From Desulfobacterales bacterium (GTDB lineage Bacteria > Desulfobacterota > Desulfobacteria > Desulfobacterales > YD0425bin51), in the NCBI GenBank assembly GCA_015228685.1, contig JADGCY010000009.1, positions 39,589-103,588 of the forward strand: a DNA stretch of 64,000 nt, read 5' to 3'. The notes below the pieces were generated by a model. The model saw nothing but the letters and a program-made list of their open reading frames with translations. It searched no databases and was not told the DNA's origin. Positions 12,031 through 44,229 of this stretch are shown in pieces. Within the stretch, counting starts at the first letter, position 1; each line of letters begins with the position of its first letter. The position numbers and the translations under genes are program-made.

Positions 12031-12450
12031 ATGAAATTCGTCAAGAATGAAATAATAATTAAAAAAGTTCAGCAAGAATTAGATAAAATAGAATCTGTAG
12101 TATCTGCCTATATTTTTGGATCTATTTTGAAAAAGGGTGTTTTTAACGATATTGATATTTTGATACTTCTAAACAATCAAGCAGATAAAAATTCTATATT
12201 CTTAGAATTACCTTGTAATTTGGCTAGATCTTTAAATATTTCTTCTAATAAAATTGATATTCTTAATTTTGATCTAAGAGAAGCAAATCCTATTGTTTTA
12301 ATTAAAGCAGTCAAAGGAAGATTAATTAAAAATGTAGATGATGAACTCTTAACAGACAAATTAGAAGAACTATCATGTTTTTTTTTAATGAATGAGCCTA
12401 TTTTATATTATAGAAAAGAGCTTTTGAGAGAATTATTATATGAATATTGA
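12031..12450 (+). CDS. Minimal nucleotidyltransferase (MNT/MntA-like antitoxin)
   Basis: 'IFGSILKKGVFNDIDILIL' matches the GS-x9-DxD pol-beta NTase motif. Overlaps the HEPN gene by 11 nt. Confidence 0.75.
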   Translation: MKFVKNEIIIKKVQQELDKIESVVSAYIFGSILKKGVFNDIDILILLNNQADKNSIFLELPCNLARSLNISSNKIDILNFDLREANPIVLIKAVKGRLIKNVDDELLTDKLEELSCFFLMNEPILYYRKELLRELLYEY

Positions 12451-12775
12451 TGTATATAGGATTTCTCAATACCTAAATGAAATAGATGAACAAATCTCCT
12501 TGATAAATAAAATCCTTAAAACAGATGATAACGAACTTCTAAATGATTTAATTAAGCTTAATGCTCTCAAATATTCTGTGATTCTTATCTCAAGCGAGCT
12601 AAAAATAAAATTAAAACCTTTTTTTCGAGTTAGAAATATGATCGTTCATAGATACTGGAAATTAGATAATTCAAATTTTCTTAAGGATTTAAGACAAGGT
12701 GTTGAAGATTTTCGTGAATTTCATGTTGAAGTCAAACAATTTTTACAGGGTTGTGTAAATGAAAAATCCCTTTGA
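12440..12775 (+). CDS. HEPN-domain protein (DUF86/HepT-like toxin)
   Basis: 'RNMIVHRYW' is the Rx4HxY HEPN RNase motif. Typical MNT-then-HEPN order. Confidence 0.75.
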   Translation: MNIDVYRISQYLNEIDEQISLINKILKTDDNELLNDLIKLNALKYSVILISSELKIKLKPFFRVRNMIVHRYWKLDNSNFLKDLRQGVEDFREFHVEVKQFLQGCVNEKSL

Positions 12776-18785: not shown

Positions 18786-20432
18786 TTACTTTAGTGAATT
18801 GTATAATATAAAACCGCCTGAAATTCCTTTGGCATTAAATCCATATTGCCTTAAAATTCTTGCTGCAATATATGATCTTTTACCAACAACACAATATGTA
18901 AGTATTTCTCGATCTTTAGGAATTTCTGAGATTTTATCTCTAATTTGATGCAAAGGAATATTAATGCTTCCTTGAAGGTGGCTTTTTGAATATTCAAAAA
19001 CTGTTCTGACATCTATAATGTAAGGAGAATTATCATTTATATTTTCCCAATGAGCAACAGGAGAATAACCTCTAATTGAATTTGATGCAATCATACCAGC
19101 CATATTTACAGGGTCTTTTGCTGAACCATATGGTGGAGCATAACATAATTCAGCTTCTTCAAGGTCAAAAACAGTTCCATTTTTTTGAATAGCCATGGAA
19201 ATAACGTCAATCCGCTTATCAACTCCTGCCATACCTACAGCTTGTGCGCCTAAAATTTTTCCATCTGACTGTGAAAATATGAGCTTCATTGTTATTGTTT
19301 TAGCATCAGGGTAATAACCAGCATGATTGTCCGGATGAAGGTAAATCTTTTCATATTCATTCATTTTATTTCTTTTCAGTGCTTTTTCTGAAAGACCTGT
19401 AAATGCAACAGTTAAACCTAGAATACCGCATATAGATGTTCCTTGAACTCCTCTGAATTTAGGCAATGGGTCTTTTCCAAAAAGAACGTCAGCAACTATT
19501 CTACCTTGTCTATTAGCTGGACCAGCAAGCGGAATAAGTGCAGGTATTCCTGAAATATAATCTTTAACTTGAACTGCATCACCTACTGCATAGATATTTT
19601 CATCACTGGTCTGCATATATTCATTAACTTCAATTCCTCCAAGTTTGCCAATGGATAGTCCTGCCTGTTTTGCCAGATCAATTTCCGGTTTAACACCAAT
19701 ACTTAAAACCACAATATCAGATTGTATAACTTTCCCTGTATTAGTTAAAATTCCTATACTTCCGTCCTTTTCCTGTTTAAATCCTGTTACAGAAGTTTTT
19801 AATAAAAGAGAAATATCATATTTCTTTAGGTGTTCATGAATAAAGCTTGCAATTTCTGGATCAACTGGAGGCATAACTTGAGGCTGCATTTCAATAATAG
19901 AAACATCCAAACCATGCCTTTTTAGATTTTCAACCATTTCAAGCCCAATAAAACCTCCTCCAACAACAACAGCCCGTTTTATATGTTTCTGTTTTATCCA
20001 GTTTATTATATTTCTGGAATCAGCTATGTTTCGCAGAGTAAATATGCCTGGTAAATCGATTCCATCTAGTTTAGGTTTGATTGGAGAAGCTCCAGGAGAT
20101 AGAAGGAGTTTATCGTATGATTCTTTATAAATTTTACCTGTTTTTAAGTCCTGAACTTCAATCTCTTTTTTTTCTCTATTTATTGAGCAGACGTTATTTT
20201 CAGTTCTTACTTCAATATTAAACCAGCCTTTAAACATTTGAGGAGAAGCTACAAGAAGGTTTTCTTCTTTTGTAATTACATTTCCAACATAATAAGGAAG
20301 TCCGCAGTTTGCAAATGAAACAAATTCACCTCGTTCAAAGATAATAATTTCAGTATGTTCTGAGAGCCTTCTAGCACGAGCTGCGCATGATGCTCCTCCT
20401 GCAACACCTCCGACAATTAATAATCTCTTCAT
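18786..20432 (-). CDS. CoA-disulfide reductase / NADH oxidase with C-terminal rhodanese domain
   Basis: FAD 'IVGGVAGGASCAARA', redox Cys 'SFANCGLPY', C-terminal rhodanese 'YCVVGKRS'. Confidence 0.8.
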   Translation of the reverse strand: MKRLLIVGGVAGGASCAARARRLSEHTEIIIFERGEFVSFANCGLPYYVGNVITKEENLLVASPQMFKGWFNIEVRTENNVCSINREKKEIEVQDLKTGKIYKESYDKLLLSPGASPIKPKLDGIDLPGIFTLRNIADSRNIINWIKQKHIKRAVVVGGGFIGLEMVENLKRHGLDVSIIEMQPQVMPPVDPEIASFIHEHLKKYDISLLLKTSVTGFKQEKDGSIGILTNTGKVIQSDIVVLSIGVKPEIDLAKQAGLSIGKLGGIEVNEYMQTSDENIYAVGDAVQVKDYISGIPALIPLAGPANRQGRIVADVLFGKDPLPKFRGVQGTSICGILGLTVAFTGLSEKALKRNKMNEYEKIYLHPDNHAGYYPDAKTITMKLIFSQSDGKILGAQAVGMAGVDKRIDVISMAIQKNGTVFDLEEAELCYAPPYGSAKDPVNMAGMIASNSIRGYSPVAHWENINDNSPYIIDVRTVFEYSKSHLQGSINIPLHQIRDKISEIPKDREILTYCVVGKRSYIAARILRQYGFNAKGISGGFILYNSLK

Positions 20433-22876: not shown

Positions 22877-23839
22877 ATGGAACTTATAAATTTAGAAGAT
22901 GATTCTGTTGAAAAAAAAACATATGATTTATTAATTTTAGGCGGAGGTGCATCAGCAATGACAGCTGCTATTTATGCAGCTAGAAAGATGTTAAAGATTG
23001 CTTTGATGACCAAAGATATAGGTGGACAGATTACTTATACTTCAGAAATAGAGAACTATCCAGGGTTCCAAGCAATTACAGGAAATGAGCTTACAGATAA
23101 ATTTCAAGCCCAAGTTAAGGCTTTTGATATTCCCATATGGCTGGACAATATTTCTAAAGTCCGAAAAGAAGAGGATTTGTTTTATGTTGAAACAGAAAGT
23201 GAAACAGTTTTTAAGGGGAGAACTCTTATAGTTGCTACTGGAAAACGTTATAGATCACTTAATGTTCCTGGAGAAAAGGAATTTGTTGGAAGAGGAGTAG
23301 CTTATTGCAGCACATGTGATGCTCCTTTTTATAGAAATAGAAATGTTGTAGTTGCAGGAGGAGGAAATTCAGCCGTAACTGCTGCATTAGATTTGCTTAA
23401 AGTTGCAAAACATGTTTATTTAGTCAATTATTCCAAAGGGCTGCAAGCAGACCCAATTATGATATCTTCTCTAGAAAAATTTAAGGATAAATTAACGCTT
23501 TTGGATGAAAGTGCCATAACTAAAATTGAAGGTGATAAGTTTGTAACAGGTATTTATATAAAAGATAGAAAAGATAATAAAGAAAGAATAATTGAAGCAG
23601 AAGGAATTTTTATTGAAATTGGTTTGATACCAAATTCAGAAATAGTAAAAGATTTTGTTGAGCTTAATAAAAATAATGAAATTGTTGTTGATTATAAGTG
23701 TTCTACTAATATACTAGGGTTATTTGCAGCAGGTGATGTAACAACAGTTCCACACAAACAGATTATAATAGCTGCAGGAGAGGGAGCAAAAGCAGCACTG
23801 TCTGCTTATGAATATCTATCTAAACAGGGCTATGTCTAA
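22877..23839 (+). CDS. trxB: Thioredoxin-reductase-like FAD/NAD(P) disulfide oxidoreductase
   Basis: 'ILGGGASAMTAAIYAAR', redox 'CSTCD', second dinucleotide site 'VVAGGGNSA'. Confidence 0.8.
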   Translation: MELINLEDDSVEKKTYDLLILGGGASAMTAAIYAARKMLKIALMTKDIGGQITYTSEIENYPGFQAITGNELTDKFQAQVKAFDIPIWLDNISKVRKEEDLFYVETESETVFKGRTLIVATGKRYRSLNVPGEKEFVGRGVAYCSTCDAPFYRNRNVVVAGGGNSAVTAALDLLKVAKHVYLVNYSKGLQADPIMISSLEKFKDKLTLLDESAITKIEGDKFVTGIYIKDRKDNKERIIEAEGIFIEIGLIPNSEIVKDFVELNKNNEIVVDYKCSTNILGLFAAGDVTTVPHKQIIIAAGEGAKAALSAYEYLSKQGYV

Positions 23840-38977: not shown

Positions 38978-41398
38978 ATGACAACAGATACATCCCGTAT
39001 AGGTGTTTATGTATGCCACTGCGGTTTAAATATAGCTCAGACAGTGGATTGTTCGGAAGTTAAAGAAAAAGCATCCAAATTAGAAGGAGTTGTTATATCA
39101 AAAGATATAGCTTACGCATGCTCAGAACCAGGTCAAAAAGAAATTAGAGATGACATATATAAAAACGAGTTAAATAGAATTGTTATAGCATCCTGTTCTC
39201 CTAGGCTACATGAGCCTACTTTCCGTAACATGATGGTTGATGCTGATCTAAATCCATATTTGCTGGATATGGCAAATATTCGTGAACAATGCAGTTGGGT
39301 TCATATGTCTGATAAAAGAGGAGCTACTGATAAAGCCATTGATCTTGTTAAAATGTCAGTGGGAAGAGTAAAAGAGCTTCAGCCTCTTTTTGAGGAAAGA
39401 CTTTCTCTTACAAAAAGAAGTTTAGTCATTGGAGGAGGAATAGCTGGAATTCAGGCTGCTTTAGATCTTGCAGATAATGGTTATGAAGTTGTTTTAGTTG
39501 AAAAGAATGCATCCATTGGCGGAATTATGGCTAAATTAGATAAAACATTTCCAACAATGGATTGTTCCATCTGAATTTTAGGTCCTAAAATGACAGATGT
39601 CGGTCGACATCCTAAAATTAAACTTTTAACTCTTAGTGAAGTTGTTGATGTAAAAGGTTACGTTGGTAATTTTGAAGTAAAAATTTTAAAAAGACCAAGA
39701 TATATAGAAGAAAAAGATTGCACATCATGCGGAGATTGCACTAAGGTATGCCCAGTTGTAAGACCAGATGAGTTCAATGTTGGATTATCTTCTAGGAAAG
39801 CAATATTTAAACCCTTCCCACAAGCTGTTCCTTCAGCGTATATTTTAAATATTTCTGAATGTCTTGGTCATAATCCTTCAGTCTGCGCTAAATGCCTTGA
39901 AGCTTGTGATAAAAAATGTATAAATTTTCATATGTCAGACAAAGAATTAGTTGAAAAGGTAGGTACAATTGTTGTTGCAACAGGTGTTGAGCCTTATGAT
40001 CCTAAAATTCTTGATGAATATGGATATACCCGTTTTGACAATGTTGTAACCAGCCTAGAATTTGAAAGATTAGTAAATGCCGGAGGTCCAAGCAAAGGGG
40101 ATTTAATTCGTCCAACTGACATGAAAAGACCAAAATCAGTAGGTTTTATTCAATGTGTAGGATCTCGAGCTAAAAGGAAAGGAAAAGAGTACTGCTCTAA
40201 TGTTTGCTGTATGAATACTATTAAAAGCACTCTTGTATTAAAAGAACATTTTGAAGATATTGAAATAAAAGTATTTTACATTGATATCAGAGCGTTTGGA
40301 AAAGGTTTTGAAAATCTTTTTAAAAGAAGTAGAGAACTTGGAGTTCATTATTTGAGAGGACTTCCTGGAAGAGTTGAAGAACTTGCGGATAAAAGTCTTC
40401 GCGTTGCAGTAGAAAATACAAGCACTGGAAAAATAGAATTTTATGATTTAGATATGCTTGTTTTAGCAATAGGATTAAACCCATCTAAAAGCACACAAAA
40501 AATTCAGGAAATGCTTGGTCTTCAACTTACTCCTGATGGTTTTTTCCTTGAAGCCCATCCCAAGCTTCAACCTGTAGATGCTGCAACTCGTGGTATCTTT
40601 TACGCAGGATGTGCTGAATCTCCTAAAGATATTAAAGATACTGTAACTCAAGCTTCAGCAGCTTCAAGCAGAGCTATAAGAATTATGCATAAAGGAGAAA
40701 TTTTAACTGAGCCAATTACGTCAGAAGTGATTGTTAATCTGTGCAAAGCATGTGGAAAATGCGCTGAAGTATGTCCCTATAATGCTATTTCTGTAGATGT
40801 TAAGAAAAAAATATTAGCGAAAGTTAATTCAGCAGCATGTGCTGGATGTGGAACTTGTGCAGCAGAATGTCCTTTTGGTGCAATCCAAATGAATCATTTT
40901 AGCGATGTTCAGATTACAAATCAGATAGATGAACTCCTCTCTGATGACTCTGAGCAAAAAATATTAGCCTTTGCATGTAATTGGTGTTCCTATGCTGGAG
41001 CAGATTATGCTGGAGTTTCAAGAGTTCAATATCCATCTAATGTCAGAATAATAAGAACAATGTGTTCAGGTCGTGTTAGTGAAGATTTTATATGGCGCGG
41101 ATTTTTAAAAGGAGCGCCTGTTATATTAGTTAGTGGTTGCCACATTGGTGATTGCCATTATATCAATGCAAATCATTGGACTGAGAAAAGAATAGAAAAA
41201 GTAAGAGCTAAAATGGAAAAAATGGGAATCAGACAAGATAGGCTCCAATTGGCATGGATTAGCGCAGCAGAAGGGATTTTATTCGGAGAAGTTATGAATA
41301 AAATGGAGGTGTTAAGAAAAAGTGTTTCATCTAAGGAAATTGCAGAAACAATTGGTATTTTGACAAACAAACTTAAAAACATAAGGACAAAAACATGA
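38978..41398 (+). CDS. hdrA: Heterodisulfide reductase subunit A-like protein fused to an MvhD domain; selenoprotein with in-frame UGA (Sec) at 39572-39574
   Basis: ORFs 38978..39574 and 39590..41398 share one frame, separated only by a TGA. Read-through gives 'KTFPTMDCSI-U-ILGPK', the HdrA 'DCSxC(I/S)LxPK' motif with Sec at the second Cys. FAD 'VIGGGIAGIQAA', several 4Fe-4S CxxCxxCxxxCP motifs, C-terminal MvhD-like 'FACNWCSYAG...GCHIGDCHY'. Confidence 0.8.
39575..39611 (+). promoter_or_regulatory. Candidate SECIS element(s) just 3' of the in-frame UGA
   Basis: Hairpin ATTTTAGG-T-CCTAAAAT (39575-39591), then GATGT-CGGUCG-ACATC (39596-39611) with apical GGUC about 30 nt after the UGA. Confidence 0.45.
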
Positions 41399-41486: not shown

Positions 41487-42638
41487 ATGATAGAACTTAG
41501 AAAATTTCTTGCTCCAGAATTTGTATTTGGGGAAGGAGCAATACATTTAGCAGGACAATATGCAAGAAATTTTAGCGCACAAAAAGTGTTAGTTGTAACT
41601 GATTCTGGTGTTATTCTCGCAGGATGGGCAGATAAAGTTACAAAATCATTAGAGAGTTCAGGGATTAACTATTCTATATATCATAATGTTTCTCCAAATC
41701 CTAGGGCAGAAGAGGTGATGGAGGGAGCAGATTATTATCATAGCGAAGGATGTGATATCATAATTGCTGTTGGCGGCGGCAGTGCTATAGATTGTGCAAA
41801 AGGTATAGGTATTGTCAGCACAAATAAAAAAAATATTCTTGAATTTGAAGGTGTTGATAATGTAAGTATTCCAGGACCTCCTTTAATATGTATTCCAACC
41901 ACATCAGGAACATCAGCAGATGTTTCACAATTCGACATAATTACAAACTCAAAAGATAAAATAAAAATTGCAATAATAAGTAAAGCAATGGTGCCTGATG
42001 TGGCACTTATTGATCCGTCTACTGCTTTAACTATGGATACTTATTTAACTGCATGTACAGGTATTGACGCCTTTGTTCATGCCATAGAAGCTTTTGTTTC
42101 AACTGCAAGTTCTCCTATTACAGATCTGCACGCCCTAGAAGCTATAAAATTGATTCATGAAAATCTTCTTAAAGTTATTAATAATCCAAATGATATTATA
42201 CTTCGCAGCAAAATTATGTTTGCAAGCCTTCAGGCAGGACTTGCATTTTCAAATGCAAGTCTTGGAGCAGTACATGCAATGGCACATAGTTTGGGTGGAT
42301 ATTTAGATCTTCCTCATGGTGAATGTAACAGCATTTTAATAGATCATGTAGTTGCTTTTAATTATAAAGAGGCAAATGATCGTTTTAATAAAATAGGTGA
42401 TGTCTTAAAATTAGATTTAACTAGTATGACTTCTAAAGAAAAACAGAAAGCAGTACTAGAAGAAATTACCAGATTTAAAATAGCTGCTGGTATTAGTTCT
42501 ACACTTAGCAAAAAAGGAGTTTCAATTTCAGATATCCCTGAATTATCTAAAAAAGCATTATGCGATCCATGTATTGTTACAAATCCTAGACGTCCAAATA
42601 AGCGTGATATTGAGGTAATATATGAAGAAGCCATCTAA
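41487..42638 (+). CDS. Iron-containing (group III) alcohol dehydrogenase
   Basis: 'GGGSAIDCAKGIG', metal-binding His cluster 'HAMAHSLGG'. Length 383 aa. Confidence 0.85.
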   Translation: MIELRKFLAPEFVFGEGAIHLAGQYARNFSAQKVLVVTDSGVILAGWADKVTKSLESSGINYSIYHNVSPNPRAEEVMEGADYYHSEGCDIIIAVGGGSAIDCAKGIGIVSTNKKNILEFEGVDNVSIPGPPLICIPTTSGTSADVSQFDIITNSKDKIKIAIISKAMVPDVALIDPSTALTMDTYLTACTGIDAFVHAIEAFVSTASSPITDLHALEAIKLIHENLLKVINNPNDIILRSKIMFASLQAGLAFSNASLGAVHAMAHSLGGYLDLPHGECNSILIDHVVAFNYKEANDRFNKIGDVLKLDLTSMTSKEKQKAVLEEITRFKIAAGISSTLSKKGVSISDIPELSKKALCDPCIVTNPRRPNKRDIEVIYEEAI

Positions 42639-44229
42639 TATTCATGATCAATGGAAAGATATGCGTAATCGCATTATTGGATTTGGCGAAAAATCAATAA
42701 AAAAAAGCTATTACCCAGAATTACGAGAACAGCTTTTAGAGCTCACTGAGACAAAAGAAAAATATCGTCAGCTATTTGAATATGCAACAGATGCTATTTT
42801 TATCATTCAAAATCAATTTATTAAGTTTCCAAACCCTAAAACCCTTGAGCTTCTTGGTTATTCATCAGAAGAATTAGCAAATACTGATTTTTTTAGCTTA
42901 ATTAAGGAATCAGATATACCTTTAATTAAAGAATGGTGTCAAAAAAAACATGCAAATGATACAGAAAATAGCCCAATATCATTTGTTATTTTACCTAAAA
43001 ATAGAGAAAAATTATGGGTTGAACTAAATTCAGTAATAATAAATTGGGAAGGTAAACCTGCTCTCTTAAATTTTTTAAGAGATATTACTGAGAAGAAAAG
43101 TCTTGAAACTCAACTTTTGCAGTCACAAAAGATGGAAAGTCTAGGGACTCTTGCAGGAGGTATTGCTCATGATTTTAACAATCTTCTTATGGGAATACAG
43201 GGAACTTTATCCCTTACTTTGCTTGAGTCTAATATAACTGATAATATTTCCATTCAATTAAAAAAAATTGAGCAATATGTAAAACAAGCATCTGAGCTTA
43301 CAAACCAATTATTAGGTTTTGCAAGAAAAGGAAAATATGAAGTTAAACCAGCTAATATTAATAATCTTGTAGAAAAAACCTCTATGCTCTTTGGCAGGAC
43401 AAAAAAAGAAATTACCATAAATTCTCAATATCAAAAAGATGTATGGACAGTTGAAGTTGATATGTGCCAACTGGAGCAAGTTCTCCTTAATCTTTATATA
43501 AATGCTTGGCAGGCAATGCCAAATGGTGGGGAAATTCATCTTAAAACTAAAAATGTCGTTTTAAATAAAGACAATCTAAAATCGATTTCTGTTACGCCTG
43601 GAAAATATGTAAATTTTTCTATTAGTGACACAGGTGTTGGAATAGATGAAAAAACAGTTCAAAGAATTTTTGAACCTTTTTTTACTACAAAAGAGATTGG
43701 GAGAGGAACTGGACTTGGTCTTGCGTCAGCTTATGGAATTATTAAAAATCATGGTGGATTTATCACAGTAAATAGTAAAATTGGTGTTGGATCAACTTTT
43801 GATATATTTTTGCCAGCCTCAGATAAAAAACTTCCTATTGAGAATAGAACAGAAGAAGAAATAATAAAAGGGGATAAAACAGTTTTAATTATTGATGATG
43901 AGAAAATGGTACTGGATGTAATGCCTAAAATGTTAAATAAACTAGGCTATAAAACTCTAACTGCACAAAATGGTAAAGAGGCAATAGAGATTTATGAAAA
44001 TAATATTAAAAAAATTGACATTGTTATTCTTGATATAATTATGCCAGAAATGAGCGGAGCAGATGTTTTTAAACATTTAAAGGAAATAGATCCAAATGTT
44101 AAAGTGCTTCTCTGCAGCGGATACAGTATTGAAGATGTAGCACCTCAATTACTTAATGAGGGGTGTAAAGGGTTTATAAAAAAACCTTTTAATATGATAC
44201 AATTATCACATAAGTTAAAGGAGATTTAA
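42622..44229 (+). CDS. Hybrid PAS sensor histidine kinase with C-terminal receiver
   Basis: PAS region, H-box 'IAHDFNNLLMGI', 'GTGLGLASAYGI', receiver 'IVILDIIMPEMSG'. Confidence 0.85.
   Translation: MKKPSNIHDQWKDMRNRIIGFGEKSIKKSYYPELREQLLELTETKEKYRQLFEYATDAIFIIQNQFIKFPNPKTLELLGYSSEELANTDFFSLIKESDIPLIKEWCQKKHANDTENSPISFVILPKNREKLWVELNSVIINWEGKPALLNFLRDITEKKSLETQLLQSQKMESLGTLAGGIAHDFNNLLMGIQGTLSLTLLESNITDNISIQLKKIEQYVKQASELTNQLLGFARKGKYEVKPANINNLVEKTSMLFGRTKKEITINSQYQKDVWTVEVDMCQLEQVLLNLYINAWQAMPNGGEIHLKTKNVVLNKDNLKSISVTPGKYVNFSISDTGVGIDEKTVQRIFEPFFTTKEIGRGTGLGLASAYGIIKNHGGFITVNSKIGVGSTFDIFLPASDKKLPIENRTEEEIIKGDKTVLIIDDEKMVLDVMPKMLNKLGYKTLTAQNGKEAIEIYENNIKKIDIVILDIIMPEMSGADVFKHLKEIDPNVKVLLCSGYSIEDVAPQLLNEGCKGFIKKPFNMIQLSHKLKEI

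Follow-up and report, generated by a model that had tools for sequence, protein, structure and literature searches.

Does the TGA at positions 39572-39574 of this 64,000-nt stretch of a Desulfobacterales metagenome-assembled genome (~31% GC; the whole stretch is hereafter "the window") end a gene, or is it a sense codon in the middle of one? The codon lies within hdrA2, whose product joins HdrA to a C-terminal MvhD domain, and a table of open reading frames (ORFs) splits the gene at this point into a 198-aa piece (38978-39574) and a 602-aa piece (39590-41398). On comparative grounds, we consider it highly probable (roughly 0.92) that 38978-41398 is one functional gene encoding a selenocysteine-containing HdrA2-type protein, in which the UGA would be decoded as selenocysteine (Sec) with the help of a short hairpin downstream. 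The two features on which this reading turns first are:

38978-41398, plus strand: single coding sequence hdrA2 (HdrA-MvhD fusion), 806 codons including one putative Sec codon (translation, PDB, NF040770 and tblastn)
39563-39574, plus strand: C196-S-I-U199 (CxxU) motif, the presumed Sec codon UGA being 39572-39574 (alignment with C194-S-I-C197 of 5odc_A)

One frame and probably one protein across the UGA

Translation from the ATG at 38978-38980 gives a single 806-codon frame that ends at the TGA at 41396-41398 and is interrupted only at 39572-39574, exactly 198 codons downstream of the start. The frame is open again from the base right after this TGA, and the ATG at 39590 that opens the second ORF lies five codons past it; around the interruption the translation reads KTFPTMDCSI, then the UGA, then ILGPKMTDVGRHP. 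Neither half contains a further stop or a frameshift. No other TGA in the 64-kb window is flanked within a real gene by long open stretches (203 and 607 codons here), and a scan of the window for other read-through candidates (TGA-terminated ORFs with long in-frame extensions) returned none that was convincing.

Read through, the product is a complete HdrA, with its N-terminal Fe-S domain, FAD domain, and inserted and C-terminal ferredoxin domains, followed by a complete MvhD in one chain. HdrA of Methanothermococcus thermolithotrophicus (PDB 5odc_A) matches residues 6-656 with an E-value of 1.5e-229, MvhD and VhuD chains in the PDB match residues 658-777 (E ~1e-36), and the NCBIfam HdrA2 model NF040770 (model kind "exception"), scanned with Sec replaced by Cys, scores 1179.4 bits against a cutoff of 1100 over model positions 1-775 of 777. 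The window protein has all 35 conserved Cys columns and retains 247 of the 249 residues that never vary among the other orthologs. The UGA corresponds to residue 199, which the alignment (ungapped, 97% posterior) pairs with Cys197 of 5odc_A, just as it pairs Cys196 with Cys194, so the motif is C-x-x-U. The same position is Sec197 in HdrA of Methanococcus maripaludis (PMC13518236), and a 2026 review defines the HdrA selenoprotein family by model NF040770 and motif CxxU (PMC13188914). The initial annotation had proposed two same-frame ORFs divided only by a TGA, an HdrA-MvhD fusion, and a UGA at the canonical Cys/Sec site of HdrA, and had suggested an alignment with Sec- and Cys-containing HdrA proteins; the frame is indeed open on both sides and translates across, the fusion agrees with the PDB and NF040770 matches and with a Pfam FlpD match (1e-43), and the alignment sets the UGA column for column on the conserved Cys.

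Conservation of the UGA and of the hairpin downstream

We compared the gene with its best 80 ortholog loci (L001-L080), taken at one genome per species, all from Desulfobacterota and all 72-79% identical. The tblastn matches cross the TGA, spanning residues ~6-800, and TGA stands at the identical codon in 80/80 loci: 79 were recovered by a motif search, which L051 escaped only through a nearby Lys-to-Arg change. Cultured species bearing the UGA include Desulfatibacillum alkenivorans, Desulfobulbus rhabdoformis, D. elongatus and Desulfogranum marinum. Full-length protein relatives at 58-73% identity carry Cys at the site (FPT[MI]DCSICILGPKM; e.g., P0001-P0023), and a rough neighbour-joining tree places the window protein within the Sec clade. 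The protein search also returned the exact 602-aa piece (P0002) and many relatives of 593-607 aa at 78-79% identity, all beginning MTDVGRHP.

Such shortened entries invite the reading that ribosomes terminate at UGA 39572 and reinitiate at AUG 39590, so that a split HdrA is assembled from the 198-aa and 602-aa pieces. All orthologs do have an AUG five codons past the UGA, and gene callers routinely give both pieces, but the five codons between (Ile-Leu-Gly-Pro-Lys) behave as coding sequence: in an alignment of the 66 nt from the UGA (A1; 80 sequences, with L051 outside it), they vary at third positions only, while L051 has the Lys-to-Arg change within them. Because this variation is synonymous, as expected under selection at the amino-acid level, these codons are evidently translated, contrary to a stop and restart. 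The Met, moreover, is no less conserved in Cys homologs that lack the interruption and in archaeal HdrA (ILAPKM), which marks it as an internal residue, and a restart there would delete the residue equivalent to the cluster ligand Cys197. We therefore hold a split HdrA to be very improbable.

Two hairpins lie 3' of the codon, and the initial annotation had taken both as consistent with a bacterial selenocysteine insertion sequence (SECIS):

39575-39591, plus strand: hairpin 1, directly 3' of the UGA, non-conserved (folding, shuffles and ortholog alignment)
39596-39611, plus strand: candidate SECIS hairpin (hairpin 2), stem 39596-39601/39606-39611, apical loop GGUC at 39602-39605 (RNAalifold and covariation)

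The second of these carries the SECIS claim. Hairpin 2 (GAUGUC-GGUC-GACAUC) has a 6-bp stem with a folding energy of -7.1 kcal/mol, its loop lies 31-34 nt from the U of the UGA, and it is conserved in 80/80 orthologs. The RNAalifold consensus of A1 is a single hairpin pairing columns 25-30 with 35-40 around a GGUC loop; the helix is 98.8% paired, and its sole variable pair (29-36) changes in a compensatory manner (U-A in 42 sequences, C-G in 29, U-G in 9 and C-A in 0). Criteria of the bSECISearch type ask for a G-containing apical loop 16-37 nt from the UGA, and the GGUC loop of this conserved and covarying hairpin lies 28 nt past it.

Codon usage points the same way. Of the third codon positions in the hairpin, 27, 30 and 39 do not vary at all and 33 is T in 79/80 sequences, while third positions on either side vary freely; since synonymous sites are frozen inside the hairpin and free outside it, the alignment indicates that this region is constrained at the RNA level on top of the protein constraint. 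In the window itself the codons GAT GTC GGT CGA CAT (Asp-Val-Gly-Arg-His) have a joint probability of 0.0013 under the window's codon usage and retain two rare codons, GUC (6.4% of Val) and CGA (8.3% of Arg). The window contains the pattern GATGYCGGTCGRCATC a single time, and 0/100 shuffles contain it. A covariance model trained on the orthologs alone, excluding the window, recovers 39590-39617 at 43.7 bits (E ~2e-13, next-best window match E 2.5), a score that is partly mere coding homology.

Hairpin 1 fared differently. It forms AUUUUAGG-UCC-UAAAAU (dG -1.3 kcal/mol), 61/200 shuffles fold equally well, only 75% of its cells are paired across the orthologs and pair 7-17 is broken in 72/80; we reject it as a conserved element and regard it as probably a by-product of the AT-rich Ile-Leu-Gly-Pro-Lys codons. 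A perfect 7-bp form is seen in the window, in Desulfobulbus-type loci and in L051 (loci listed: L034, L051, L059, L061, L070 and L076), and the Lys-to-Arg change of L051 (AAG to AGG) restores one of its pairs; this perfect form may be chance or a lineage-specific feature. A long-range helix pairing nucleotides 4-11 with 40-47 after the UGA, which is the minimum-free-energy fold of the window sequence alone, does no better than shuffles across the orthologs; we attribute it to the repeated CCUAAAAU in this AT-rich stretch and reject it.

As control DNA we used four full-length Cys homologs and the second, Cys-type HdrA gene of L073. The three more distant of these control genes use other codons and form no hairpin; the other two are L081 and L082. 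Two Cys forms, P0004 and P0006, nest within the Sec clade in the rough neighbour-joining tree. Together with the SECIS-like stems of two Cys-clade loci, L081 and L082 (described below), this nesting suggests Sec-to-Cys reversions, which a 2006 survey did not report for HdrA.

Weighing the readings and a likely mechanism

Several observations weigh against a selenoprotein. Pfam models for selA, selB and selD found no match among the 53 other ORFs of the window, ARAGORN found no tRNA-Sec in it (and no tRNA at all), and the 64 kb hold no second selenoprotein gene. The window stem, at 6 bp, is one pair shorter than in 73/80 relatives owing to an A-C at its base, and the Asp-Val...His-Pro codons by themselves favour part of it (GAUG...CAUC). 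Within the Cys clade nearest the Sec clade, L081 (6610-6675) and L082 (6628-6693) fold a similar stem, GGAUGU...ACAUCC, with a 6-nt loop; these stems may be SECIS relics or a coding by-product. The Rfam SECIS families gave no match either, whether the whole window was scanned at the gathering score or 39400-39800 at E-values up to 10, and the Rfam scans returned only chance snoRNA and small-RNA matches. SECIS elements within bacterial coding sequences are poorly covered by Rfam, so this miss says little.

The lack of visible Sec machinery in the window could also be taken to favour read-through of the UGA by other means, that is, by near-cognate Cys or Trp insertion or under a reassigned code, with a full-length but selenium-free product. 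Bacteria are known to read UGA as Cys or Trp at a low level. The genetic code here is standard, however, since TGA terminates 11/53 other ORFs as well as hdrA2 itself and is thus normally a stop; such read-through would also leave the conserved, covarying GGUC-loop hairpin without a role, and relatives of the same order have selA, selB and selD and annotate the gene as a Sec gene (PMC5109826). The comparative evidence thus disfavours a read-through without Sec, which we see as very unlikely. Least credible is a decaying pseudogene truncated by mutation of a Cys codon (TGT or TGC) to TGA, for which a single transversion would suffice and with which the loss here of the partner genes that flank close orthologs would agree, but which is contradicted by an identical TGA in 80/80 orthologs of different species, by two equally conserved halves that keep 247/249 invariant positions without extra stops or frameshifts, and by a hairpin kept against the codon bias of the genome.

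If hdrA2 is a selenoprotein gene, as we favour, the UGA at 39572 would be decoded during translation rather than read as a stop, and the hairpin starting 24 nt on (39596-39611, GGUC loop) would act as a bacterial SECIS. From the established bacterial mechanism we infer that, with the UGA in the A site, this element would bring SelB-GTP-Sec-tRNA(Sec) to the ribosome, and that Sec would be inserted as residue 199. Within the thioredoxin-reductase-like FAD domain, residue 199 would then supply the second of the two redox residues of the C-x-x-U motif, as the equivalent of methanogen HdrA Cys197. Cys197 is a ligand of the N-terminal [4Fe-4S] cluster in the partner protomer (PMC9012536), and in the M. 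maripaludis super-assembly Sec197 appears bonded to the Cys next to it and may carry electrons between FAD and a distal cluster (PMC13518236). The N-terminal domain is present in the window protein, and a cluster-ligand and an electron-shuttle role are therefore both possible. By analogy, the selenol would most likely tune how electrons pass between the bifurcating FAD and the clusters on the ferredoxin side, and the whole protein would represent a flavin-based electron-bifurcating core with a built-in MvhD [2Fe-2S] entry module. The remaining features of the gene fit into this scheme as follows:

38962-38967, plus strand: Shine-Dalgarno-like GAGGAG, 10 nt 5' of the start codon (read from the sequence; putative function)
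39419-39532, plus strand: Rossmann motif GGGIAG for FAD binding, residues 148-185, in the thioredoxin-reductase-like domain (Pfam FAD_oxidored, NAD_binding_8 and Pyr_redox_2)
40721-40894, plus strand: C-terminal 2x[4Fe-4S] ferredoxin domain of HdrA (Pfam Fer4_7, Fer4 and Fer4_9 on residues 383-440 of the piece from 39575)
40961-41308, plus strand: MvhD/FlpD domain ([2Fe-2S] electron-entry module), fused in frame (Pfam PF02662, 1e-43, residues 463-578 of the piece from 39575)

Neighbouring genes, annotation and known systems

In most ortholog loci with enough upstream sequence, hdrA2 is the last gene of a conserved set (e.g., L060:295-8400) that comprises a POR-gamma-like protein of ~200 aa, an NAD(P)H/GltD-like Fe-S flavoprotein with ferredoxin domains (~1125 aa) and an MvhD-HdrC-HdrB fusion with two CCG domains (~527 aa). 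None of these three partner genes occurs in the 64-kb window, and the 53 other window ORFs scanned include no hdrB or hdrC (CCG-domain) protein, so an HdrABC-type operon was not found. Conversely, the window's own flanking genes were sought beside the orthologs in 84 related loci, and none recurs. The gene immediately upstream, a weakly matching alpha/beta hydrolase gene on the plus strand, ends 22 nt before the hdrA2 start and may be co-transcribed with it; a scan for promoters and terminators gave counts at chance level. This hydrolase gene is the last of three at 35503-38955, after a lipase-chaperone-like gene and a gene for a 370-aa protein without a family match, both on the minus strand.

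Downstream, 88 nt past the hdrA2 stop, an ErcA-like iron-containing alcohol dehydrogenase (Fe-ADH) gene and a gene for a PAS hybrid histidine kinase/response regulator form a pair (41487-44229, plus strand) with a 17-nt overlap. The Fe-ADH passes the ErcA model NF041833 (629 bits vs. a cutoff of 550), and the arrangement resembles the ethanol-sensing ercA-ercS pair of Pseudomonas. It is tempting to speculate that this Sec-HdrA2 has been cut loose from its conserved partners and works with different ones in an alcohol-responsive redox module, a link hinted at by the detection of Desulfococcus multivorans Sec-HdrA1 protein only in butanol-, propanol- and butanoate-grown cells. We nevertheless consider this unlikely, as nothing positively supports a functional link between hdrA2 and the alcohol dehydrogenase/kinase pair, and the usual partners may lie elsewhere in the genome.

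Further from the gene, the minus strand at 30773-33223 encodes a protein of 815 aa that combines a major-vault-protein shoulder domain (7.8e-28) with an SPFH/Band-7 region and has no NCBIfam match, and a nucleotidyltransferase/HepT-like toxin-antitoxin pair (12031-12775, plus strand) sits in a lipid-A cluster between an oxidoreductase gene and lpxB. Two other flavoprotein-type genes, both below their equivalog cutoffs and both free of in-frame TGA, encode a CoA-disulfide-reductase-like flavoprotein fused to a rhodanese domain (18786-20432, minus strand) and a thioredoxin-reductase/AhpF-like protein (22877-23839, plus strand).

How the gene is annotated varies between databases. The expectation that an automated caller would split it holds for a large protein collection, which contains the 198-aa and 602-aa pieces separately, but probably not for NCBI: the GenBank neighbours are the hydrolase MBF0118792.1 (HQK79_08145), the alcohol dehydrogenase MBF0118794.1 and the kinase MBF0118795.1, and because exactly one accession number lies between MBF0118792.1 and MBF0118794.1 while the two pieces have no NCBI accession, the pipeline probably annotated a single full-length hdrA2 product. 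Beyond this genome, dozens of database entries of 593-607 aa beginning MTDVGRHP are truncated calls of Sec-HdrA2, some of them named only "hypothetical protein" (P0046, Desulforhabdus amnigena DAMNIGENAA_10410) or "methyl-viologen-reducing hydrogenase subunit delta". The value of a correct reading is thus mainly one of annotation: it adds one selenoprotein to an uncultured Desulfobacterales genome and would imply selenium use, and leaves the understanding of HdrA and of selenocysteine decoding unchanged. The SECIS of the ortholog group is cleanly defined (6-7 bp stem, GGUC loop, one covarying pair and frozen synonymous sites) and could serve as a search model.

Set beside known systems, the hairpin recalls that of Escherichia coli fdhF, the model bacterial SECIS, in lying within the coding sequence 3' of the UGA and in carrying an apical GGUC loop; it differs in that its loop is 31-34 nt from the U of the UGA (22-25 in fdhF) and its stem has no bulged U. 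Among archaea, HdrA of Methanococcales (Sec197 in M. maripaludis, Cys197 in M. thermolithotrophicus 5ODC) has the same fold, cofactor motifs and Sec/Cys column, but there MvhD/VhuD is a separate subunit, and the complex comprises HdrBC with a hydrogenase or formate dehydrogenase and acts on the substrate CoM-S-S-CoB, which would not be expected in a sulfate reducer. Archaeal Sec insertion relies on a SECIS in the 3' untranslated region, not on a hairpin in the coding sequence. That the archaeal and bacterial mechanisms differ is noted in PMC1794560. The HdrA-MvhD fusion was defined on HdrA2 of Methanosarcina acetivorans, which gave the family its name (HdrA2B2C2, PMC5296606) and is predicted to bind a single FAD, four [4Fe-4S] and one [2Fe-2S]; Cys takes the place of Sec in this protein, its gene adjoins hdrB2C2, and it uses F420H2 and ferredoxin with CoM-S-S-CoB.

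The closest counterparts are found among the Desulfobacterota; Sec-containing HdrA of Deltaproteobacteria was described in 2006 (PMC1794560). In D. multivorans, the Sec hdrA is split over two locus tags and comes with a SECIS, alongside selA, selB and selD (PMC5109826). The window gene departs from these relatives in its different neighbours in place of their upstream set, its 31% GC and its stem of 6 rather than 7 bp. With the Desulfobacterota Sec-HdrA genes (NF040770; hdrA1 of D. multivorans, dmul_C02770/80; L001-L080, e.g., Desulfatibacillum alkenivorans DSM 16219), it shares the same fusion at 72-79% identity, the UGA in C-x-x-U and the GGUC hairpin, which makes it an unremarkable representative of a selenoprotein family that has been known from sulfate-reducing bacteria for a long time.

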